Shown here piece after piece: positions 1-24,639 of a stretch of DNA of 25,153 nt. The notes beneath the pieces were generated by a model that made no database searches, was not told the origin of the DNA, and worked only from the letters and a program-made list of their open reading frames with translations. Numbering within the stretch: position 1 is the first letter of the stretch; every line of letters begins with the position of its first letter. Both the position numbers and the translations under genes were made by a program. Origin of the DNA: a virus (taxonomy: Duplodnaviria; Heunggongvirae; Uroviricota; Caudoviricetes); the IMG/VR virus record IMGVR_UViG_2740892236_000003, one strand, 5' to 3'.

Positions 1-51
1 ACAGAAGCCACTGGAGCACCTCAAAAACACCATCATACACTAAATCAGTAA

Positions 52-507
52 GTTGGCAGCATCACCAGCGAAGGTGATAACCGTTACCTGCGCAGGGAGC
101 AGAACGGCGCAGACATTCCGGATAAAGGGGCTTTTATCGATAACGTCGGTTTACGGGAAACGGTAAACAGGGCGGCGAATGCTCTGCCATCGGACGGCAC
201 CGCCGTTGCCGCGAATAGACTCGCCACCCCAAGAAATATTAATGGGGTTCCCTTTGACGGGACGCAGGACATAAACATCACTTCTGGTATAACACAGCAG
301 GATGCGGATTCCCGATATATCCAGGATATCAGGCTGGGAGCAGAGAACAGGCAGGTAATGTACGGTGGGGCATATTACTCTGCGTACGGTAATGTTATGG
401 CAGGCCTGCAGATTGACAGTAAAGTTGATGCTTCAAACGATTTTATAGCATTCAGACCCCTGCAAAAATTAGTCGGAGGTACATGGATTACGGTATCTCA
501 GTTATAA
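52..507 (+). CDS. Tail fibre C-terminal tip cassette (Sv-like), start-less, ~151 codons
   Basis: Frame 1 is open from 52 to TAA at 505-507 with no ATG or GTG near its 5' end. Translation ...[50 protein letters not shown]...[17 protein letters not shown]...[11 protein letters not shown] contains a GL(R/Q)ETVNRA(A/G)NA motif as recalled from P2 H at its constant/variable junction. In-frame TAA at 49-51, and stops in the other two frames at 41-43 and 75-77. Confidence 0.6.
134..159. other. Left invertase crossover site (gix/hix/cix-like, 26 bp)
   Basis: TTATCGATAACG-TC-GGTTTACGGGAA: two 12-nt half-sites around a central dinucleotide. It resembles Mu gixL as I recall it (TTATCCAAAACCTCGGTTTACAGGAA). 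Inverted relative to the site at 1451-1476 (central TC versus GA). Confidence 0.6.
134..249. repeat. Left arm of imperfect inverted repeat (~116 bp)
   Basis: The reverse complement of 134-249 aligns with 1341-1476 at roughly 85% identity by eye: identical runs of 23, 29 and 37 nt separated by a divergent ~25-nt patch. It encodes the shared N-proximal part of both fibre cassettes. Confidence 0.7.
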
Positions 508-558
508 ATAGTCAGTAAATAATATATTTTAAAACAGATTTATTTCCAGGAGGATTTT

Positions 559-1080
559 ATGGAACTAAAAAATATAACCCGTTATTATCCTGAAAATATG
601 CCATATGGTAATAATGTTCAGTATTTCCAGAGTGAAGATGGTAAGGATTTCTACGAATCCCTGCCATTATTCACCAAAAAATATAAACTTTGCATAACAC
701 CTGACAGCGGCGTTATCTGCTCAATATCACAGGACGCCTCGGCGCTGTATCCTGCGGGGTTTTCTGTGGTTGAGGTCGATGAACTCCCTGAAGGCACGGA
801 TATTTCAGGAAACTGGAAGTTTGATAATGGCATAATCTCCCGTATTCCGGTTAACTACGCAAGAAAACTGGAAGCAATGCGCCAGTCATATCTTAATCAG
901 GCATATGAAAAAATTAATGACTGGAGAACGGAGCTACAACTGGGCACCATCAGCGATGAAGACAGAGCAGCACTTACCCAATGGATGGCATACATCAGTC
1001 AGGTGAAGAAAATGGAACTACCCGCCATTAAAACAGAAGCTGAATTTAACGCCATTAAATGGCCTGAGCAGCCACAGTAA
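559..1080 (+). CDS. tfa: Tail fibre assembly protein (Tfa / Mu U-like chaperone)
   Basis: 173 aa. AGGAGG lies 6 nt upstream of the ATG. Sits immediately downstream of the fibre tip cassette. The C-terminal region (DEDRAALTQWMAYISQVKKMELPAIKTEAEFNAIKWPEQPQ) is typical of phage Tfa chaperones. The gene is AT-rich relative to the late operon. Confidence 0.8.
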   Translation: MELKNITRYYPENMPYGNNVQYFQSEDGKDFYESLPLFTKKYKLCITPDSGVICSISQDASALYPAGFSVVEVDELPEGTDISGNWKFDNGIISRIPVNYARKLEAMRQSYLNQAYEKINDWRTELQLGTISDEDRAALTQWMAYISQVKKMELPAIKTEAEFNAIKWPEQPQ

Positions 1081-1083
1081 TAA

Positions 1084-1103
1084 AGAAGGCCGGAAGGCCT
1101 TCT
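1084..1103. terminator. Hairpin between convergent tfa and minus-strand fibre cassette (possible bidirectional terminator)
   Basis: AGAAGGCC-GGAA-GGCCTTCT: perfect 8-bp stem with a 4-nt loop, flanked by AT-rich sequence on both sides. It lies exactly between the stop codons of the two convergent ORFs. Confidence 0.4.
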
Positions 1104-1111
1104 GAATATCA

Positions 1112-1495
1112 TTATATACTTGCAGCCGTCACCCATGCTCCATTTAACAGATACTGCAACGGCCGGTAATACACGCCGCCGACGTTATCTGCCGTATTCT
1201 TACCGACATCCTGTACTTTAATTCCGGTAAGAACATTGCCGCCCCCCAGATTCAGATCCCAGCTTTCCCATGTTCCGGGCATATGTGCGGTCACCGACCC
1301 CAGTCTTATGGCGGTTACTGTTCCTGATGAGATAGTGATATCCTGCGTCCCGTCAAAGGGAACACCATTAATTGTGTGGGCATTTGCCAGCCTGTTCGCG
1401 GCAACGGCGGTGCCGTCCGATGGCAGGGCATTCGCCGCCCTGTTTACCGTTTCCCGTAAACCGAGGTTTTCAGGAAAGCCAGGATTAACTCTGTT
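1112..1495 (-). CDS. Alternative tail fibre C-terminal tip cassette (S'v-like), start-less, ~127 codons
   Basis: The minus-strand frame is open from 1495 (just after an in-frame TAA at 1498-1496) to the stop at 1112. Translation ...[49 protein letters not shown]... then diverges into a different tip, ...HMPGTWESWDLNLGGGNVLTGIKVQDVGKNTADNVGGVYYRPLQYLLNGAWVTAASI. The first ~40 residues after the crossover site are shared with the plus-strand cassette. The Met reported by the ORF track at 1294 is an internal GTG. Confidence 0.6.
   Translation of the reverse strand, partial: NRVNPGFPENLGLRETVNRAANALPSDGTAVAANRLANAHTINGVPFDGTQDITISSGTVTAIRLGSVTAHMPGTWESWDLNLGGGNVLTGIKVQDVGKNTADNVGGVYYRPLQYLLNGAWVTAASI
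1341..1476. repeat. Right arm of imperfect inverted repeat
   Basis: Reverse-complement partner of 134-249; see the left arm. Confidence 0.7.
1451..1476. other. Right invertase crossover site (gix-like, 26 bp)
   Basis: TTCCCGTAAACC-GA-GGTTTTCAGGAA. Its reverse complement, TTCCTGAAAACC-TC-GGTTTACGGGAA, shares the inner half-site exactly with the left site. It lies 66 bp upstream of the invertase start, as gixR does for gin in Mu. Confidence 0.6.
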
Positions 1496-1541
1496 TTATT
1501 CCTCATGCGACAATTCCGGCTTTTTATAATAAGGAAATCGT

Positions 1542-2114
1542 ATGCTGATTGGGTATATCAGGGTGTCAACAAATGACCAGAATACGGCGCTACAAAGAAA
1601 TGCGCTGGAATGTGCAGGATGTGAGCTGTTTTTCGAAGACAGAATAAGCGGTAAGACAAGGGAGCGTCCCGGACTTAAACGCGCATTAAAGCGACTCCGG
1701 CCAGGGGATACCCTGCTGGTCTGGAAACTGGATCGCCTTGGACGCAGTATGCAGCACCTTGTCCTTTTAACAGAAGAACTCCGGCAACGCGGCGTTAACT
1801 TCCGCAGCATTACGGACAATATTGATACATCCACTCCCATGGGACGTTTCTTTTTCCATATAATGGGCGCGCTGGCGGAAATGGAGCGGGAACTCATTAT
1901 TGAACGTACACGCGCGGGTCTTGCTGCTGCCCGTGCTCAGGGGCGTCATGGCGGCAGACCTCAGAAACTGACAGAGAAAGAGCGGGAGCAAATCGCCCGT
2001 TTGCTGGCTAATGGCGAGTCCCGTAAACAAATCGCACTGATATTTGATATTGGCCTTTCCACCCTTTATCGTTATTTTCCTGCCTCACCAGCTCCGTCAC
2101 CAAAAGTACCGTGA
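1542..2114 (+). CDS. Serine DNA invertase (Gin/Pin/Hin/Cin family)
   Basis: 190 aa. The N-terminus MLIGYIRVSTNDQ carries the catalytic-serine motif of small serine recombinases; a resolvase-like core follows, and the C-terminus (QIALIFDIGLSTLYRY) is a helix-turn-helix. AAGGA lies upstream of the ATG. The gene abuts the invertible segment and reads away from it. Confidence 0.9.
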   Translation: MLIGYIRVSTNDQNTALQRNALECAGCELFFEDRISGKTRERPGLKRALKRLRPGDTLLVWKLDRLGRSMQHLVLLTEELRQRGVNFRSITDNIDTSTPMGRFFFHIMGALAEMERELIIERTRAGLAAARAQGRHGGRPQKLTEKEREQIARLLANGESRKQIALIFDIGLSTLYRYFPASPAPSPKVP

Positions 2115-2123
2115 CGCTTTTTT
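2095..2123 (+). terminator. Putative intrinsic terminator at the 3' end of the invertase gene
   Basis: CGTCAC-(10-nt loop)-GTGACG followed by C and TTTTTT (2118-2123). The stem overlaps the TGA stop codon. Confidence 0.45.
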
Positions 2124-2199
2124 GAATTTCCGCAAAACACATATTTTTCAGCGGTCGCTATTCTGACTCTGTTTAATTCAGAAACAGGCAGAAAAGACG

Positions 2200-4254
2200 A
2201 TGTCAGACTCCAAGTGGAAAATGCTCTCCGCCATGCCCGGAGAGTTTTCAGTCAAGGTTGCCGGTGGCACGGTGGCATTTATTGAAAGCCCTTTCCGCCC
2301 TTCGGGTAATAAAGGGGGGATCACCTTCGCAGACTGCGTGATCCGCTTCAGCACGAAAGAGCCATTATGGGTAATGCCGGTATCCGGTAATCCCAGTGCA
2401 GAAATCACCAGTTCAGGCGTGACTGGCATCATTCCAATCACATCTGACGTGGCCGGAACGCTCACGCCCTCCGACTGGAATGCACCGGATAACGCCGGGC
2501 CTTCCGGTAGCACGAATGGCAGCAGTTCAGAGCCGGAATATTACTTTGTTGTCATTCTCGCGGGTCAGTCAAATGGCATGGCCTACGGCGAGGGGCTGCC
2601 GTTACCGGATTCGTTTGACCGCCCGGACCCACGCATTAAGCAACTGGCACGCCGCAGTACGGTAACGCCCAACGGTACGTCGTGTACATACAACGACATC
2701 ATTCCGGCAGACCACTGCCTGCATGATGTTCAGGATATGAGCGGGATAAACCACCCGAAAGCTGATCTGGCAAAAGGCCAGTACGGGACTGTCGGTCAGG
2801 GGTTGCATATTGCCAAAAAACTGCTTCCCTATATCCCACAGAATGCCGGGATACTTCTGGTGCCCTGTTGTCGTGGCGGGTCAGCATTCACCACTGGAGC
2901 CGACGGCTCATTCAGTGAGGCCAGCGGTGCTTCCGCTGATTCTTCACGCTGGGGGGCCGGTAAACCTCTGTATCAGGACCTGGTAAGCCGCACCAAAGTC
3001 GCGCTGGCGAAAAACCCGAAAAACAAACTTCTGGCTGTGGTCTGGATGCAGGGAGAGGCAGACCTTGCCTCAGGAAGCCAGCAGCATAATAGTTTATTCA
3101 CGGCCATGGTTCAGCAGTTCAGAACTGACCTGGCTCCGCTTGCTGCGCAGTGCGTGAGTGGAAATGCCACCACGGTGCCGTGGATTTGCGGTGATACCAC
3201 GTATTACTGGAAAAACGCTGGCACCGATAAATATGAGGCAGTATACGGTGGCTACAAAGGCAAGGAAGCACAGAAAATTTTCTTTGTACCGTTCCTGACG
3301 GATGAGAATGGACAGAGCACGCCAACGAATGCTCCGGCGGAAGACCCGGATATTGTGGCTGTCGGGTATTACGGTGCAGCATCCCGAACCCAGGGCAGTT
3401 TTGTTTCGACACAGCGTGACAGCCATTTCAGCTCATGGGCACGCAGGGGCGTCATTTCAGACCGTCTGGCCTCAGCTATTATGCTCCATGCAGGGCGCAC
3501 GGCTGAACTGATGCGCGGGCAGACCGTGACACCACCGGATGAGAAGCCGTCACCTGATACACCATCAAAACCGTCCACGCCACCCGCAGACACCACGACG
3601 ATGAGTACGCTATTTGCTTACCGGGCATCTGAGTCTGAAGGACGGTTGACACCACAGGGTTGGGCTGCCGGAGGTGGCAAGGCTCAAATCGTGGATGATG
3701 CCGGAGCCAGCGGGGGTAAGGCAATGAAACTGACCAAGGAAACAGGAAGAGCCCCCTGGTACCTTGAGCATGATGCTGGTAATGGTGCGGACCTGCTGGG
3801 TAAAGGTGGTCTTGTCAGTTGTCGTTTTAAACTCGATGGCGCGCTTACGGCTAATCAGTACGCACTGGCGCTGTACTGGCCGGTTTCTGCCCTGCCGCAA
3901 GGGGTTACTCTGGAAGGAAATGCCGGTCATAACCTGCTGGCATCGTTCTACGTACAGAGCGATGCCACAGACCTTAACGTGATGTATCACAAAGGAAACA
4001 CGGCGCAGAACACGAAGCTGGGGTCATTCGGCGCATTTAATAACGAATGGCATACGCTGGGCTTCCGTTTTGCCGGTAACAACAGTATTGAGGTGACGCC
4101 GGTCATTGATGGTAAGGACGGGACACCATTCATGCTGTCGCAGTCTCCGGTCGGCACGTTTACGGCAGACAAGTTGCGCGTGACCGATATCACTAAAAAT
4201 GCGACTTACCCGGTACTGATTGACAGTATCGTGGTGGAAGTGAATAACGCGTAA
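2200..4254 (+). CDS. Multidomain SASA/SGNH-type carbohydrate O-acetylesterase-like protein (NanS-like) with Pro/Thr linker and C-terminal putative binding domain
   Basis: 684 aa. VVILAGQSNGMAYGEG (nt ~2545-2590) matches the GQSN catalytic block, and AVVWMQGEADL (nt ~3030-3060) the QGE(S/A)D block, of sialate O-acetylesterase (SASA) family hydrolases, both recalled from memory. A Pro/Thr-rich linker (PPDEKPSPDTPSKPSTPPADTT) precedes a ~230-aa C-terminal region that looks like a beta-sandwich or lectin-like domain. No N-terminal signal peptide is apparent. The RBS is weak and the start codon uncertain. Confidence 0.55.
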   Translation: MSDSKWKMLSAMPGEFSVKVAGGTVAFIESPFRPSGNKGGITFADCVIRFSTKEPLWVMPVSGNPSAEITSSGVTGIIPITSDVAGTLTPSDWNAPDNAGPSGSTNGSSSEPEYYFVVILAGQSNGMAYGEGLPLPDSFDRPDPRIKQLARRSTVTPNGTSCTYNDIIPADHCLHDVQDMSGINHPKADLAKGQYGTVGQGLHIAKKLLPYIPQNAGILLVPCCRGGSAFTTGADGSFSEASGASADSSRWGAGKPLYQDLVSRTKVALAKNPKNKLLAVVWMQGEADLASGSQQHNSLFTAMVQQFRTDLAPLAAQCVSGNATTVPWICGDTTYYWKNAGTDKYEAVYGGYKGKEAQKIFFVPFLTDENGQSTPTNAPAEDPDIVAVGYYGAASRTQGSFVSTQRDSHFSSWARRGVISDRLASAIMLHAGRTAELMRGQTVTPPDEKPSPDTPSKPSTPPADTTTMSTLFAYRASESEGRLTPQGWAAGGGKAQIVDDAGASGGKAMKLTKETGRAPWYLEHDAGNGADLLGKGGLVSCRFKLDGALTANQYALALYWPVSALPQGVTLEGNAGHNLLASFYVQSDATDLNVMYHKGNTAQNTKLGSFGAFNNEWHTLGFRFAGNNSIEVTPVIDGKDGTPFMLSQSPVGTFTADKLRVTDITKNATYPVLIDSIVVEVNNA

Positions 4255-4269
4255 GCAGGATAAAAAAAT

Positions 4270-4302
4270 GCCGCCGGTAAGGGAAAACAAGAAACCGGCG
4301 GC
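4270..4302 (-). terminator. GC-rich hairpin with a T-tract on the minus strand only
   Basis: GCCGCCGGT-(15-nt loop)-ACCGGCGGC, a 9-bp stem. On the plus strand it is followed by A-rich sequence, so it is a poor terminator for the esterase gene. On the minus strand it is followed by TTTTTTT. Confidence 0.3.
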
Positions 4303-4398
4303 AAAAAGATCGTTATATCCAAAGCAAAAAATGCAGTGCACCTTTTTACCTAACAGATATTACCGGTGTCAACACCATGTCAATAATTGGGAGGGATA

Positions 4399-4581
4399 AT
4401 GACATTTTTACAGCTTATTTTATTGTATTTCTGCACGGCAGTATGTGCGTTATATCTGGTGAGTGGTGGTTATAAGGCCATCAGAAATTATGTTCGCCGC
4501 AAAATTGAGGACGCAGCAGCTGAAAAACTCAGTAAAACAGCGCAGGTAACTCCGCTCCCAAAAGACCCGACCCAGCCCTGA
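4399..4581 (+). CDS. Small single-pass membrane protein (hypothetical)
   Basis: GGGAGGG lies 4-5 nt upstream of the ATG at 4399; the ORF track starts the frame at a TTG at 4387. The product is ~60 aa: a hydrophobic N-terminal segment (FLQLILLYFCTAVCALYLVSGGY) followed by a charged tail. Confidence 0.4.
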   Translation: MTFLQLILLYFCTAVCALYLVSGGYKAIRNYVRRKIEDAAAEKLSKTAQVTPLPKDPTQP

Positions 4582-4616
4582 TTGCAGGGCTTTATTCCCG
4601 CATAAGGAGGATATAC

Positions 4617-4871
4617 ATGCCAGAAATTAAAGGCACCGTCACTGAAGACCTGGTAAAACAGGCACTGTATTCCGGTGAAGTAAATAAGTTGCTGAAAGCG
4701 CAGGTCCGCAAGGATTTTGAGGCACAAATCGACACTTACGTTGATGAAGTGCTGGCAAAACTTATTGGGCCAGCAGTTGCGGCCAGTGATGCTGATAATG
4801 AGCCGAAAACCGACGCGCAGCCAGAGCAACCAGACCCGGCTCAGCCCGGAACTGACAGTACCATGATGTAA
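4617..4871 (+). CDS. Small acidic hypothetical protein
   Basis: 84 aa. A strong AAGGAGG lies 7 nt upstream of the ATG. The C-terminal half is acidic and Pro/Gln-rich. No recognisable family. Confidence 0.45.
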   Translation: MPEIKGTVTEDLVKQALYSGEVNKLLKAQVRKDFEAQIDTYVDEVLAKLIGPAVAASDADNEPKTDAQPEQPDPAQPGTDSTMM

Positions 4872-5264
4872 CAATACAAACCGGTGGTGTCCTCTGCCGG
4901 TTTGACACTAATGAAAACATCTTTGCCGCTATCCAGCCATATGTAATCGCTGGATAGTATTTCGTATTCAGAAATATAGCTGCTTATGGAGCAGTCAATC
5001 CTGCTTCCCCATCCGGGCAGGCAAATGAACCGGTATCATTAGTCCGATTCACGCTTTTGTAGAATCGTTCCCAGAATGCTATACAGCTCATTAGCCTGTT
5101 GCTCCATCATTGAGACGGAGGCTATACGGTGCAAAGTGATTTCAGGAGGTGGCACACCTCCATCTTCTTGCTGTGGAGGAAAAACATAAGATTTAATAAA
5201 AAAAGTTGAAGCATATGAACTCTCCCGCACTCGAACTGTATTTGCAGGCATCTGAATAATCGGA

Positions 5265-5274
5265 NNNNNNNNNN
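5265..5274. other. Assembly gap (10 N)
   Basis: A run of N. It truncates the minus-strand tail fibre ORF, and the translation beyond it is not protein-like. Confidence 0.95.
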
Positions 5275-9515: not shown

Positions 9516-10857
9516 TGATCACCTCCACGCGGCGGCCACCCGGAACAAAAACCGGATCGGGGATATTGTTTCTGCGGACAAAATACTGCCAGCGGCGGCT
9601 GTTACCGGTGGCACGGTACAGCGTGACCAGTGCCGGTTCGGTGGTTCGCACCATGACCTGAAAAGCACCGGGAAGATGCACGCTCCGCGTGGTTAAATCT
9701 TCTGTCAGCGCAAGCCCTGCATCACGTAATGCAAGGGCGGTGCCGGTATGGCCCTGTGCGGACAGATCCAGCACCTGTTGTTCCATGGCATCGCTCAAAT
9801 CCCGGTTGATACGCTGCACATCAGCAGAACTTTCCAGCCAGGCCAGTCCGCCCGCACGGTCAGTATCCTGAACGTGCGTCGTATTCTGCCGGATGACCTG
9901 ATCCAGCAGTTTTCCGACCGTCTGCGCCTGCGACACCAGGGCTGCACTCTGCATGACGCTCCGCAGCAGACGGATATTGTTCTGTGCCGCAGGCGTCAGA
10001 CCAATCAGGCGCTGCGGATCATCCTGTTCGCTGAGGGTGTAACGCAGGGAAGAAAGTGTGCGGTACAGCTGCGGCATGGCCTGCTCTGTCGTGCTGTCAC
10101 GGTTTGTGGTCAGGCTGCCGGACGGCGTTCCGGCTTTTCCGGTCAGCGACAGGGAAGGAGCGCCGGGCAGCCCCGCCAGCACGGCAAACATTCCGGCCAG
10201 CGATTCAGCCATGCGACGGGGCGCATTAATCAGGGCGGCGGCATTCCCTTTCAGGGCAGTAAAACTGGCCGTAAAGGCACTGATATCCTGCACAATCCCC
10301 ATCCCTGAAACGGCATTCTCCAGCGCATCAATTTTATCGCTGATGGTGTCGGTCATGGCCTGTACATCATGCAGACCGTCTGAAATCACCGTCCAGCCGT
10401 CTGAAAGTGTGTTAAACAGCTGATTCATTGCTGAGCCGCTTTTCTGCTCCAGCGCAGCTGCCGTATCTTCTGCCACCGAAGGGGCGGTATCGTCACTGGC
10501 GGGGATCACGTTGATCGTGAACTCAACCGTTCCCTGCTCGCTGGCGTTATAACGGCTTTCAAAGCTGTTTATCAGCACGTTTAACGTGCCGTAATCCGGG
10601 TGCATCAGTTCACCGGCACCGGGTGCACGCAGCGCATCACGCAGGCGGCTTCGCTGTGTCTGAAGATCGTCTCCGGTCACTAGAACCGTGAATGTGAACT
10701 CCGGGAGTTTTGGCCCCAGATCATCCGCACCGCCGCTTTCACGCAGTGGGTATTCACGGCGCACAATGTTACGTCCGCCCCGTTCCCGCTGCTCCTGATA
10801 AACCAGGAACGGTACGCCACGAAAGGAGCCACGCCCCGGCGTGTCAGTAGAGGCCAT
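9499..10857 (-). CDS. DNA circularisation protein N-like tail protein (Mu gp43)
   Basis: 452 aa. The N-terminal region (GSFRGVPFLV...) resembles the DNA-circulation N-terminal domain. Sits directly downstream of the tape measure gene. Confidence 0.75.
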   Translation of the reverse strand: MASTDTPGRGSFRGVPFLVYQEQRERGGRNIVRREYPLRESGGADDLGPKLPEFTFTVLVTGDDLQTQRSRLRDALRAPGAGELMHPDYGTLNVLINSFESRYNASEQGTVEFTINVIPASDDTAPSVAEDTAAALEQKSGSAMNQLFNTLSDGWTVISDGLHDVQAMTDTISDKIDALENAVSGMGIVQDISAFTASFTALKGNAAALINAPRRMAESLAGMFAVLAGLPGAPSLSLTGKAGTPSGSLTTNRDSTTEQAMPQLYRTLSSLRYTLSEQDDPQRLIGLTPAAQNNIRLLRSVMQSAALVSQAQTVGKLLDQVIRQNTTHVQDTDRAGGLAWLESSADVQRINRDLSDAMEQQVLDLSAQGHTGTALALRDAGLALTEDLTTRSVHLPGAFQVMVRTTEPALVTLYRATGNSRRWQYFVRRNNIPDPVFVPGGRRVEVISEQQD

Positions 10858-22811: not shown

Positions 22812-24639
22812 TACCAGCCCCCCCGATCAAATTCATGATATGCCTCATCGTCATCACGATAACCGCCCTCCATTGCCCGCGACCGCTCCGGTAGCGCCTG
22901 ACAGGCTGATTCATCCAGGATGAAGCCCTCCATGTATGACGCCCGGTTTGCCATACAGAGCGCCACGGCAAAATCACCATGGCGGCGGGCGTTCGCAGCC
23001 GTTGCGTTCTGGTCCTTCGTGCGCCCCTTGTCGATTTGCGGGATACCATTCACTACCTTCACATGGCGCAAATCATCAAGCGTGGTCTGATGGCGGGCGA
23101 CGAGGATATTCTGATCTTCAAACTCGGCTTTCAGTTTTGGCATCCACTCGCCGTACCACTTCGGCGACAACATCACGCAGTCGATGATGTCCGGGCCAAA
23201 GGCCAGCAGTGCGGCCTCTGCCAGATAGCCGCCGTTACCGGTGGCGTCGAACGCCGCACCGACCAGCGCCGGAACGCGGGTCAGGATGTACATCATCACC
23301 TGTTCCTGCTGGGCATACGGCAGGTTGCGCAGCTCCACGCGAAACACCTCGCGCTTTGCCAGGGATTCGGTGATTTCCAGCAGCACAAAGCAGGACAGGT
23401 CACCGGTGCGGGCAAAGTCTTCCCCGAAGCTGAAGCGGGAACGGGGATTTAATTTCTCTAAAAGCGGTTTTAAATGTTCTTCACACCAGGTTAAAACTTC
23501 CGATTCACGCAGCCATGCGGCACGGCTGATGAAGTTGTCCGGGGCTTCAAACGTCAGAATCGGGATGTCGCGGATCATCGCCATTTCAATAAGCGCGTGG
23601 GGGATATAGGCACCGCCGGATTTTTTCGGGATACAGCCGTATTCCTCGTCGGCATCCTCACGGGTCGGGGCATTTTTGTAGAGATCATCACGCCATTTCT
23701 GCTCGCTTTCCGGTGACCATTCCTGATCGGTGACGTAACAGATACGACGGTACAGCCCGTCCGCAATGGCATCATCCAGGGTTATGCGGTGGACGCTGTA
23801 ATCCTTGCGCCCCTCGCGGGCTTCCTGAATGTACTGATTAAACAGATTATCGACGCCGTTATGCGTGGAGATAATACGCACGCGCGCGCCCCACATAGTG
23901 AGCGCCATTGCCGCCTTGAGAAGTTCATCCAGCGACTCGTGGAACGCGGCTTCATCAATCACCACATCCCCCTGAAGGCCGCGCAGGTTTGACGGACGGG
24001 AAGACAATGCCTGAATTTTGAATCCACTGTTCGGAAAGCGGATCATGTAGGTCAAAATTTCTTCTTTTTTATCCCGATCCCAGAATGTCTGCTCATACAC
24101 ATCAGCATCTGCCAGCTGGTTAAAGGCACGGGAGAACAGCGCGCAGGCAGAAATATATTCCAGCGCCATCTCCTGCTTTGATCCCACATAAAACACATTG
24201 CGGCCACCACGACGCTTCGGTTTTGCAGCAGTAATGACGTTACGCCCGGCTTCCGCCCAGGTAAGACCGGTGCGGCGGGATTTTTCCGCAATGCAGACCT
24301 GACTTTCATCCTCAAACCAGCGGGCCTGATAATCCAGAAACACCGGCATATCACCGGGCAAATCAAGTCTGTCCGGCACATCCACGCCCAGCAGGGCTTT
24401 TTCACCGGACAGATCAATTTTGCGGGGAGGCGTCNNNNNNNNNNCTCCGCGATGCAGACCTGACTTTCATCTGCAAACCAGCGGGCCTGATAATCCAGAA
24501 ACACCGGCATATCACCGGGCAAATCAAGGCTGTCCGGCACATCCACGCCCAGCAGGGCTTTTTCACCGGACAGATCAATTTTGCGGGGAGGCGTCATTTG
24601 CATCAGTGAAGGCGACGTTTCTCTGGCTTTGTTCATCAT
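22811..24639 (-). CDS. Terminase large subunit (Mu gp28-like), interrupted by assembly gap and duplicated overlap
   Basis: The ORF-track pieces 22811-24385 and 24052-24639 are one gene. The N-terminal segment ...DVPD(S/R)LDLPGDMPVFLDYQARWF(A/E)DESQVCIAE is encoded twice, either side of the N-run, and the apparent start at 24385 is an internal GTG. The true start is the ATG at 24639 (MMNKARETSPSLMQ...), overlapping the stop of the upstream gene. Estimated ~555-560 aa once the duplicate is collapsed. Confidence 0.85.
24285..24594. repeat. Two 150-bp near-identical direct copies flanking a 10-N gap (unmerged contig overlap)
   Basis: 24285-24434 and 24445-24594 differ at about 4 positions. The N-run at 24435-24444 lies between them. 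Confidence 0.9.

Follow-up and report, generated by a model that had tools for sequence, protein, structure and literature searches.

The window analysed here is a 25,153 nucleotide stretch of phage DNA (IMG/VR record IMGVR_UViG_2740892236_000003). Downstream of a gene encoding a large carbohydrate esterase, it contains two small genes, both genuine phage genes already catalogued as DUF1378 and DUF826, followed by a series of hairpins, part of an orphan gene on the opposite strand and a joint between two contigs:

2200-4254, forward strand: carbohydrate esterase (684 aa) with a SASA catalytic domain and, at the C-terminus, DUF6645; it opens the cassette
4262-4336, reverse strand: candidate antisense small RNA gene (~75 nt), inside the cassette
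4389-4395, forward strand: Shine-Dalgarno sequence GGGAGGG of the DUF1378 gene, read from the sequence, 3 nt before the ATG
4399-4581, forward strand: DUF1378 gene (60 aa; PF07125, phrog_494)
4604-4610, forward strand: Shine-Dalgarno sequence AAGGAGG of the DUF826 gene, read from the sequence, 6 nt before the ATG
4617-4871, forward strand: DUF826 gene (84 aa; PF05696, phrog_311)
4877-4904, no strand assigned: hairpin or terminator closing the cassette, 6 nt past the stop codon of DUF826, from folding
4928-4958, no strand assigned: second hairpin, CTATCCAGC N11 GCTGGATAG, followed on the forward strand by a U-rich stretch, in variable filler
4980-4994, reverse strand: small terminator-like hairpin, 45 nt after the stop of the reverse-strand ORF
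5039-5264, reverse strand: 3' part of the orphan ORF (WP_000571916.1, a hypothetical protein in locus L001)
5265-5274, no strand: run of 10 N that links two contigs, produced by the assembly

The esterase is matched by PF03629 (E 1.5e-13), PF20350 (E 7.4e-68) and phrog_143 (E 1.7e-296), is annotated in complete genomes as a DUF6645 domain-containing protein, and resembles NanS-p. RefSeq holds exact copies of the two small genes, at 100% DNA identity, in genomes that annotate them as DUF1378 and DUF826. DUF1378 scores 109.4 bits against PF07125 (cut-off 25; residues 1-58 on a 59-position profile) and matches phrog_494, whose function is unannotated, over positions 1-59 of 59 (E 1.3e-32); DUF826 scores 58.7 bits against PF05696 (cut-off 25; profile positions 1-58 of 75) and matches phrog_311 over positions 1-85 of 85 (E 4.9e-28). 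Almost all of the ~80 loci compared (the best 80 of 292 matches) keep the ORFs intact, with 23 distinct DUF1378 and 31 distinct DUF826 protein variants. Ratios of dN/dS range from 0.14 to 0.32 for DUF1378 and from 0.09 to 0.4 for DUF826, indicating that purifying selection acts on both. Their GC content is 0.45-0.50, against 0.57 for the structural genes. The two small ORFs picked out by a first-pass annotation of this DNA are real, with profile matches, RefSeq annotation and dN/dS in agreement, and the strong Shine-Dalgarno sequences it reported for both are present. The TTG at 4387, where its interval begins, was rejected as a start codon: it sits inside the Shine-Dalgarno sequence, and the RefSeq start is the ATG at 4399.

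Sensitive homology searches, a check proposed in that annotation, placed both proteins in catalogued DUF families with no characterised relative. Pfam, PHROGs, PADLOC and PDB searches found no characterised-family, structural, defence or holin homology for the pair, and PDB sequence searches, PADLOC and NCBIfam gave nothing meaningful for either protein, PADLOC contributing one match at chance level. An exhaustive profile search for DUF826 recovered 42 clusters among 1.84 billion representatives, all uncharacterised, and a scan of species-representative genomes for DUF1378 recovered two loci only, one of them a decayed remnant. Literature searches by identifier, 933W locus tag and nanS-p context found one descriptive mention and no functional study; a published survey records ORFs of both DUF families in the interval from nanS-p to S and assigns them no function (PMC10462455). 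In many prophages of pathogenic E. coli the pair is an immediate neighbour of genes for Shiga toxin, the esterase and lysis.

Predicted form of the two proteins

DUF1378 has the features of the ~60 aa single-pass membrane protein originally proposed, namely a single, strongly hydrophobic stretch at residues 3-24 (Kyte-Doolittle 2.27) and a tail of 36 residues that is basic (8 K/R, 4 D/E) and helical in an AF2 model; the overall pI is 9.3. Alignment identifies Y10, F11, C12, T13, C16, Y19 and S22-G-G-Y25 as conserved. The protein is predicted to be a bitopic inner-membrane protein with a transmembrane helix at approximately residues 3-24 and a cytoplasmic basic tail. Judging from hydropathy and the positive-inside rule, it would insert in the inner membrane N-out/C-in, placing almost nothing in the periplasm and presenting a basic amphipathic helix to the cytoplasm.

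The second product is the 84 aa acidic protein that had been described (ORF 4617-4871, pI 4.2). Its AF2 model is helical (pLDDT 68) and, taken with alignments, suggests a short helix at residues 10-17, a long amphipathic helix at 20-50, and a disordered, acidic, proline-rich tail with a hydrophobic end (MM); DUF826 is accordingly predicted to be an acidic soluble protein. Foldseek comparison of this model with BFVD returned no significant neighbours. Because the two proteins are complementary in charge and their genes invariably adjacent, we propose, tentatively and at somewhat less than even likelihood, that the acidic coiled-coil-type helix and disordered acidic tail of DUF826 dock on the cytoplasmic helix of DUF1378, which would yield a small membrane-associated complex. 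As a surrogate for this complex, AF2 was run on P0148, a natural read-through product in which the DUF1378 tail is fused to DUF826; the model (pTM 0.28) contained no confident inter-domain arrangement.

DNA between DUF826 and the contig joint

Almost all intact contexts have a GC-rich hairpin 5-15 nt beyond the stop codon of DUF826, though its sequence differs between them. The example in this window (4877-4904; -16.7 kcal/mol, z -3.7) has a weak U-tract on the forward strand and a U-rich tail on the reverse strand. Homology with FORC_069 stops at 4903, and related Mu-like prophages diverge there. The second hairpin (4928-4958) folds at -15.3 kcal/mol (z -4.4), and its inner stem is not preserved in L020, a variant with 80% identity; for each of the two hairpins, 0 of 200 shuffled sequences fold as well. 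Both hairpins noted in the first-pass annotation are thus real, but its observations are confirmed only in part. Besides the start at 4387, the claim that the ~390 bp following DUF826 (4872-5264, 393 bp) are non-coding needs correction: the 167 bp at 4872-5038 are indeed intergenic, but 5039-5264 belongs to a reverse-strand ORF. The former is convergent-terminator intergenic DNA. Positions 4905-5264 are variable filler, in which this intergenic DNA gives way to the 3' end of the orphan reverse-strand gene, cut by the contig joint.

Two stable hairpins in 4872-5038, together with the Hfq-dependent small RNAs that esterase-linked prophage regions are known to carry, would suit a small regulatory RNA encoded there, such as a product of the DUF826 mRNA 3' UTR. 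However, an Rfam search at E <= 1 gave no match anywhere within 4872-5264, where a small RNA had been suggested; the structure of the second hairpin is not conserved in L020; everything past 4903 is replaced in related prophages; and convergent terminators account adequately for the stretch. We give such an RNA only a slim chance.

The orphan ORF encodes 86-100 aa in complete genomes, has homologues in E. coli and Shigella only, and is without a match in Pfam, PHROGs, NCBIfam or PADLOC; its dN/dS against L020 is 0.36. Here the end of the contig cuts it, and one additional A in the homopolymer at 5199-5205 (A7 here, A6 elsewhere) shifts its frame. The sequences flanking the gap map to positions 10004 and 4807 of L001, in opposite orientations, and the far side is the N-terminal part of the tail-fibre gene of the same prophage, reversed; this gene appears to carry an IS1 insertion. 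The joint is therefore an assembly artefact: at 5265-5274 two contigs have been placed together in arbitrary order and orientation, and the gap is not a biological boundary.

This bears on the suggestion that 4872-5264, which has many hairpins, is AT-richer and runs into the assembly gap, contains a prophage end or attachment site. The sequence instead continues, in 14 complete E. coli genomes that share 99.9% identity over this stretch, through the rest of the ORF, com and mom, and reaches the prophage/host junction ~1.34 kb further on; gene order in complete genomes is gin, esterase, DUF1378, DUF826, reverse-strand ORF, com, mom, host DNA. Another 1.3-1.8 kb of phage DNA (com, mom) precedes the host genes in both L001 (ybfB/rhsC) and L002 (fimbrial genes), and two such prophages occupy different chromosomal sites. 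Likeness to the termini of known Mu-like phages was not found either: when 4260-5264 was searched by sensitive blastn against a collection of 50,697 phage records, the only segment matched was 4426-4900, in two records and within an inserted Mu-like region, and 4904-5264 had no match. A phage end or attachment site at this position is unsupported by these comparisons and very improbable.

The cassette in Mu-like and lambdoid prophages

Positions 4399-4904 probably make up the distal two-thirds of a cargo cassette that is conserved among prophages and consists of esterase, antisense small RNA-like unit, DUF1378, DUF826 and terminator hairpin. The loci compared are the best 80 of 292 matches, mostly from E. 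coli isolates and therefore not independent; 27 of these 80 are in Mu-like contexts, 51 lambdoid, 1 hybrid and 1 undetermined. Within the same best 80 of 292, the esterase ends 143-171 nt upstream of DUF1378 in 76/76 IMG/VR loci, and DUF826 starts 23-77 nt downstream of DUF1378 in 77/77. The corresponding positions in this window are 4254 (esterase stop), 4399 (DUF1378 start) and 4617 (DUF826 start). The earlier idea of a membrane protein and acidic partner forming an accessory module is borne out to the extent that they are a conserved pair, carried as accessory cargo after the esterase.

In the Mu-like setting, that of this window, the cassette is located between gin and com/mom; in the lambdoid/Stx setting it is located between Q/stx and the holin. 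The interval from nanS-p to S (holin) in O157:H7 TW14359 (L003) has the same three-gene order and spacing, followed by a hairpin. In Stx/lambdoid regions of this type a holin is adjacent, whereas the Mu-like interval here, from gin to com/mom, has no adjoining holin. Lambdoid esterases also do not share the first ~110 residues of the esterase in this window (tblastn matches begin after approximately residue 100-140), and lambdoid alleles of DUF1378 and DUF826 are 55-75% and ~40% identical, respectively, to those found here. Further divergent examples are a Mu-like locus without gin (L086) and one ordered Q, esterase, pair, holin (L092). DNA and protein searches of the phage collection found the small genes of the cassette in two records only, both an inserted Mu-like region, a count obtained with tblastn at E <= 1e-3, which missed lambdoid DUF826 alleles of ~40% identity.

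The association is not universal. Phage Mu itself lacks the pair, as do some prophages that carry the esterase, such as those of EPEC E2348/69, where the esterase is followed by a holin; a Cedecea Mu-like prophage carries DUF1378 without esterase or DUF826; and short relatives of DUF826 stand alone in other phages. Common ancestry and short distances, and not function, could therefore account for the synteny seen in Escherichia.

Proximity to lysis genes raises the alternative of a holin/antiholin-like lysis-timing pair, in which DUF1378 permeabilises the membrane and DUF826 regulates it, acting with or on the lysis machinery. DUF1378 does look like a holin, being small, with one transmembrane domain whose small and aromatic residues are conserved and a highly charged tail at the C-terminus, features that are generic and not diagnostic; and in 51 lambdoid loci among the best 80 of 292 matches a class II holin and lysozyme come immediately after the pair. 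T4 T/RI/RIII and the S21 pinholin are systems of a holin plus cytoplasmic regulator, and the pair resembles them in combining a small membrane protein with a charged tail and a small helical soluble partner, near lysis genes in lambdoid phages. It differs from them in having no homology to either and in the virtual absence of a periplasmic part from DUF1378. Neither Pfam nor PHROGs gives a holin-family match (only DUF1378/phrog_494), the lambdoid phages in question already carry a full set of holin, endolysin and spanin, including a separate bona fide class II holin, and prophages with esterase and holin exist without the pair. In 27 Mu-like loci among the best 80 of 292 matches, this window included, the pair is kept far from lysis genes, and no lysis gene occurs in the interval from gin to mom in either this window or L001. 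That it keeps company with the esterase even where the backbone is Mu-like and unrelated speaks against a role linked to the neighbouring lambdoid lysis cassette, and we regard a lysis-timing function as unlikely.

Equally unlikely, in our estimate, is a moron unrelated to the esterase, expressed in the lysogen and acting on the host envelope through superinfection exclusion or modulation of a host membrane protein. Several phage exclusion proteins are small membrane proteins (HK97 gp15, T4 Imm), and the pair, which includes a small inner-membrane protein, occupies classic moron positions in both backbones. Like the morons lambda bor/lom and HK97 gp15, it is accessory, terminator-delimited and lower in GC than the neighbouring structural genes. 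Unlike morons, DUF1378 and DUF826 have no identified promoter of their own; PADLOC gave a match at chance level only; and linkage to the esterase is invariant in Escherichia among the best 80 of 292 matches.

Antisense RNA candidate, transcription and proposed role

The reverse strand from 4336 to 4262, upstream of the interval first flagged in this DNA, is a better small RNA candidate than 4872-5264. By our own reading its putative promoter hexamers are TTGACA (-35, 4372-4367) and TAAAAA (-10, 4348-4343), separated by an 18 nt spacer on the reverse strand, and it ends in a hairpin (GCCGCCGGT/ACCGGCGGC, 4270-4302; -26.8 kcal/mol, z -3.85) followed by U7 (4268-4262), abutting the stop codon of the esterase. 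The same architecture recurs in most of 31 distinct upstream regions, which include several unrelated sequence types. PasA and PasC, validated Hfq-dependent small RNAs encoded by EPEC prophages, occur at the same position and on the same strand, downstream of esterase genes; like these and Esr41, the candidate is antisense, is located just downstream of a SASA esterase and has an intrinsic terminator. No match to PasA or PasC was found by blastn. Rfam at E <= 1 on 4200-5264 gave one weak match, to Esr41 (22.2 bits against a gathering score of 102) and outside 4872-5264, and at the gathering threshold it found nothing in the spacer between esterase and DUF1378 of 14 related loci. For this window the analysis is corrective, leaving no phage end in 4872-5264, a gap that is an assembly joint, and the best small RNA candidate just upstream of the interval originally flagged.

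On the forward strand, no terminator was found in the interval between gin and the esterase, and no convincing sigma-70-like promoter before DUF1378, where the sole AATAAT-like hexamer would place the transcription start within the Shine-Dalgarno sequence. Because no promoter of its own was identified, the pair seems to be transcribed together with gin and the esterase; co-transcription of DUF1378 and DUF826 with the esterase is likewise suggested by their spacing and by the lack of an intervening forward-strand terminator or promoter. From its position, the hairpin after DUF826 would end this unit, and may shield what follows from read-through unless the late regulator of the phage is active; the genes so insulated are harmful ones, mom in this window and the holin and endolysin genes in lambdoid phages.

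Since the pair moves with the esterase across unrelated phage types, we speculate that it serves the esterase, for example through membrane permeability or release of an enzyme that has no signal sequence, and not a function specific to either backbone. We hold this to be rather less probable than the docking of DUF826 on DUF1378; it offers a testable hypothesis of an accessory function in release or localisation of the esterase. A more elaborate version, to which we assign only a small probability, is that DUF1378 and DUF826 constitute a self-contained holin-like device with a cytoplasmic regulator, by which the signal-less sialate O-acetylesterase would exit living or partly lysing lysogens independently of the phage lysis cassette, with the antisense Pas-like RNA as a built-in regulator. 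If true, the cassette would combine cargo and export in one module, passed as a whole between Mu-like and lambdoid phages.

Identity and conservation of the two small genes

Downstream of the 684-aa SASA/DUF6645 esterase gene (2200-4254, plus strand), the reading frames, ribosome-binding sites and hairpins proposed in the first-pass annotation are present, with the first start moved to ATG 4399:

4262-4372, minus strand: small-RNA candidate in the esterase/DUF1378 spacer
4399-4581, plus strand: DUF1378 ORF, 60 aa, Shine-Dalgarno GGGAGGG at 4389-4395
4617-4871, plus strand: DUF826 ORF, 84 aa, pI 4.2, preceded by AAGGAGG at 4604-4610
4872-5038: convergent-gene spacer, 167 bp
4877-4904 and 4928-4958: hairpins (z -3.7 and -4.4, both stabler than all 200 dinucleotide shuffles)
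4994-4980, minus strand: small terminator-like hairpin
5039-5264, minus strand: 3' part of an orphan ORF, 86 aa as annotated in E. coli JE86-ST05

A TTG start at 4387 for the first gene was rejected because it falls within the GGGAGGG Shine-Dalgarno. Homology searches place both proteins in known families. The first scores 109 bits against PF07125/DUF1378 (cut-off 25) and belongs to phrog_494; the second scores 59 bits against PF05696/DUF826 (cut-off 25) and belongs to phrog_311. RefSeq genomes that annotate them as WP_000143468.1 and WP_001114100.1 match their DNA at 100% identity. Their description as a ~60-aa single-pass membrane protein and an 84-aa acidic protein holds: in DUF1378 a single, very hydrophobic stretch covers residues 3-24 (Kyte-Doolittle 2.27), and the tail behind it is basic (pI 9.3). 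The finding is ordinary and the earlier observation is largely correct; the modest value left lies in conservation of the cassette across backbones and in the adjacent Pas-like small-RNA candidate.

Both families are narrow, with DUF1378 relatives in Escherichia, Shigella, Citrobacter and Cedecea, and only 42 DUF826 clusters among 1.84 billion representatives in an exhaustive profile search. Across ~80 loci, carrying 23 (DUF1378) and 31 (DUF826) distinct protein variants, the ORFs are intact, the exceptions being a single decayed remnant and a few DUF826 copies that are truncated. With dN/dS of 0.09-0.4 against the window alleles, sequence comparison indicates that both are real genes under purifying selection. 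Residues Y10, F11, C12, T13, C16, Y19 and the motif S22-G-G-Y25 are invariant or nearly so in DUF1378, which points to specific intramembrane helix-helix contacts. DUF826 is predicted to fold as a short helix, then a long amphipathic helix (20-50), with a variable acidic, proline-rich tail that usually ends in hydrophobic residues.

A cassette in Mu-like and lambdoid prophages

An IMG/VR scan via DUF1378 recovered 292 relatives, the best 80 of which were mapped by tblastn. Among these 80, an esterase gene ends 143-171 nt upstream of DUF1378 in 76/76 loci with enough flank, and DUF826 starts 23-77 nt downstream in 77/77. The backbone is Mu-like (gin-esterase-pair-...-mom) in 27 of the 80 and lambdoid (esterase-pair-class II holin-(YdfR)-lysozyme) in 51, leaving one hybrid and one locus assigned to neither. 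Two more divergent loci keep the trio: a Mu-like prophage without gin (L086) and a lambdoid region arranged Q-esterase-pair-holin-lysozyme-Rz (L092). The only published mention of DUF1378/DUF826 that we found is a descriptive remark on Stx2a phages (PMC10462455), which places both ORFs in the interval from nanS-p to S. The linkage of pair and esterase is not absolute, since EPEC E2348/69 prophages have esterase then holin with the pair missing, a Cedecea neteri Mu-like prophage carries DUF1378 alone after the tail fibre, and other phages have short DUF826 relatives on their own.

Residues 1-110 of the window esterase (2200-2529) have no Pfam match, and lambdoid NanS-p-type esterases lack this N-terminal ~110-residue part, their tblastn matches beginning past residue ~100-140; the upstream recombination boundary of the cassette thus appears to fall within the esterase gene. 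At the other end, a GC-rich hairpin occurs 5-15 nt past the DUF826 stop in nearly all intact contexts, its sequence varying by lineage and several copies having a clear U-tract. The window's copy, 4877-4904, is the exact divergence point of related Mu-like prophages. This hairpin would end the cargo transcript and shield harmful downstream genes (mom in the window, holin/endolysin in lambdoid phages) from read-through. No terminator was found in the gin-esterase interval and no credible plus-strand promoter upstream of DUF1378, and the esterase-DUF1378 hairpin lacks a plus-strand U-tract, making co-transcription of the pair with the esterase the likeliest arrangement.

In the hybrid (L070, IMGVR_UViG_2617270951_000022, 96-5136), gin and an esterase that shares 99% identity with that of the window precede lambdoid-type DUF1378/DUF826 alleles, a class II holin and lysozyme, reflecting either Mu-like/lambdoid recombination inside the cassette or chimeric assembly.

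Possible roles of the pair and the adjacent small-RNA candidate

The analysis establishes which genes these are, how far they are conserved and in what order they occur, along with their predicted secondary structure and the terminator; what the proteins do can be sketched conditionally. By the positive-inside rule, given five K/R in the ten residues past the transmembrane segment, DUF1378 would be an N-out/C-in bitopic inner-membrane protein. Its cytoplasmic basic helix, predicted at pLDDT 71-81 (AF2), might bind DUF826 at its acidic amphipathic helix; AF2 on a natural read-through product linking the two parts gave a pTM of 0.28, with no confident arrangement of one relative to the other. 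An accessory module of membrane protein and partner, as first proposed, is reasonable, though already catalogued as two DUFs. Profile and structure searches of the pair returned no holin, defence-system or solved-structure homology, and the suggested holin-like role seems improbable to us, as does an exclusion-type role. Because the pair travels with the esterase in a backbone without an adjacent holin, we rank slightly above these a tentative reading in which it might be an esterase accessory, for example in release or localisation of the signal-less enzyme.

The small-RNA candidate, read from the sequence, has a -35-like TTGACA (4372-4367), an 18-nt spacer and TAAAAA (4348-4343); it runs ~75 nt after TAAAAA and closes with a hairpin (4270-4302) and U7 touching the esterase stop. 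Most of the 31 distinct spacers compared, which belong to several unrelated sequence types, share this arrangement of promoter-like elements and terminator. In EPEC, the experimentally validated Hfq-dependent sRNAs PasA and PasC lie at the same place behind esterase genes and on the same strand (PMC8550237 table S6), and an arrangement 'esterase-PasA-holin-lysozyme' is described by Zhu, Shabalina and Storz. The candidate has no blastn match to PasA/PasC and scores 22 bits against Rfam Esr41 (gathering score 102); it is best regarded as Pas-like in position and architecture rather than as an established member of the PasA/PasC/Esr41 families.

The downstream stretch and its genomic setting

Of the ~390 bp first described as non-coding, 4872-5038 fits that description and 5039-5264 does not, being part of the orphan ORF. 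Rfam has no match within 4872-5038, where a check for a small RNA had been proposed; the spacer reads as an ordinary convergent-terminator zone. The proposal of a phage end or attachment site in 4872-5264 is wrong: com, mom and then host sequence follow, the phage/host junction lying ~1.34 kb past the contig end in JE86-ST05, and 4904-5264 has no match in 50,697 phage records.

The orphan ORF is found in E. coli and Shigella only, matches no family in profile searches, and is probably 97 aa at full length, from an upstream in-frame ATG behind AAGAGG. A variant 79-80% identical keeps the frame (dN/dS ~0.36), and the ORF is plausibly, not certainly, a gene. The window copy is cut off by the contig end and frameshifted by an extra A at 5199-5205 (A7 vs A6 in 14 near-identical genomes and one divergent copy), either a sequencing error or a pseudogene.

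The window was scaffolded via 10-N spacers at 5265-5274 and 24435-24444:

1-5264, contig A: 66-base IS1 end, variable/invertible tail-fibre part, gin-type recombinase, 684-aa esterase, DUF1378, DUF826
5275 onward, contig B, opposite orientation: N-terminal part of the same tail-fibre gene, then Mu-like baseplate, tail and head genes

Positions 1-66 are IS1 terminal bases, 100% identical to thousands of annotated copies, and the contigs abut at 4807/4808 of the JE86-ST05 locus (L001); IS1 therefore splits the tail-fibre gene in this strain and broke the assembly there, which suggests a prophage defective in its tail fibre. Contig A ends within a gene at L001 position 10004, and 4260-5264 is 99.9% identical in 14 complete E. 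coli genomes. Gene order in L001 is baseplate, tail fibre, invertible segment, recombinase, DUF6645/SASA esterase, DUF1378, DUF826, minus-strand hypothetical ORF, com, mom, host ybfB and rhsC. A related prophage in FORC_069 occupies another chromosomal site, as expected of a transposable phage; the sequence it shares with the window ends at 4903, and other filler then precedes com/mom.

The invertible, G-like tail-fibre segment (129-1480), beside the gin-type recombinase gene (1542-2114), is oriented opposite to JE86-ST05 and FORC_069, which fits an invertase switch that is or once was active. Terminase large subunit N-terminal coding sequence lies on both sides of the second joint with a few amino-acid differences, which suggests either that the genome carries two related Mu-like prophages or that an overlap was left unresolved. 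Past contig A, the com/mom upstream region (L001 10140-10330), from which the orphan ORF diverges, has clustered GATC sites (gatcgatcg...gtcgatcgatt) recalling phage Mu's Dam/OxyR-controlled mom promoter.
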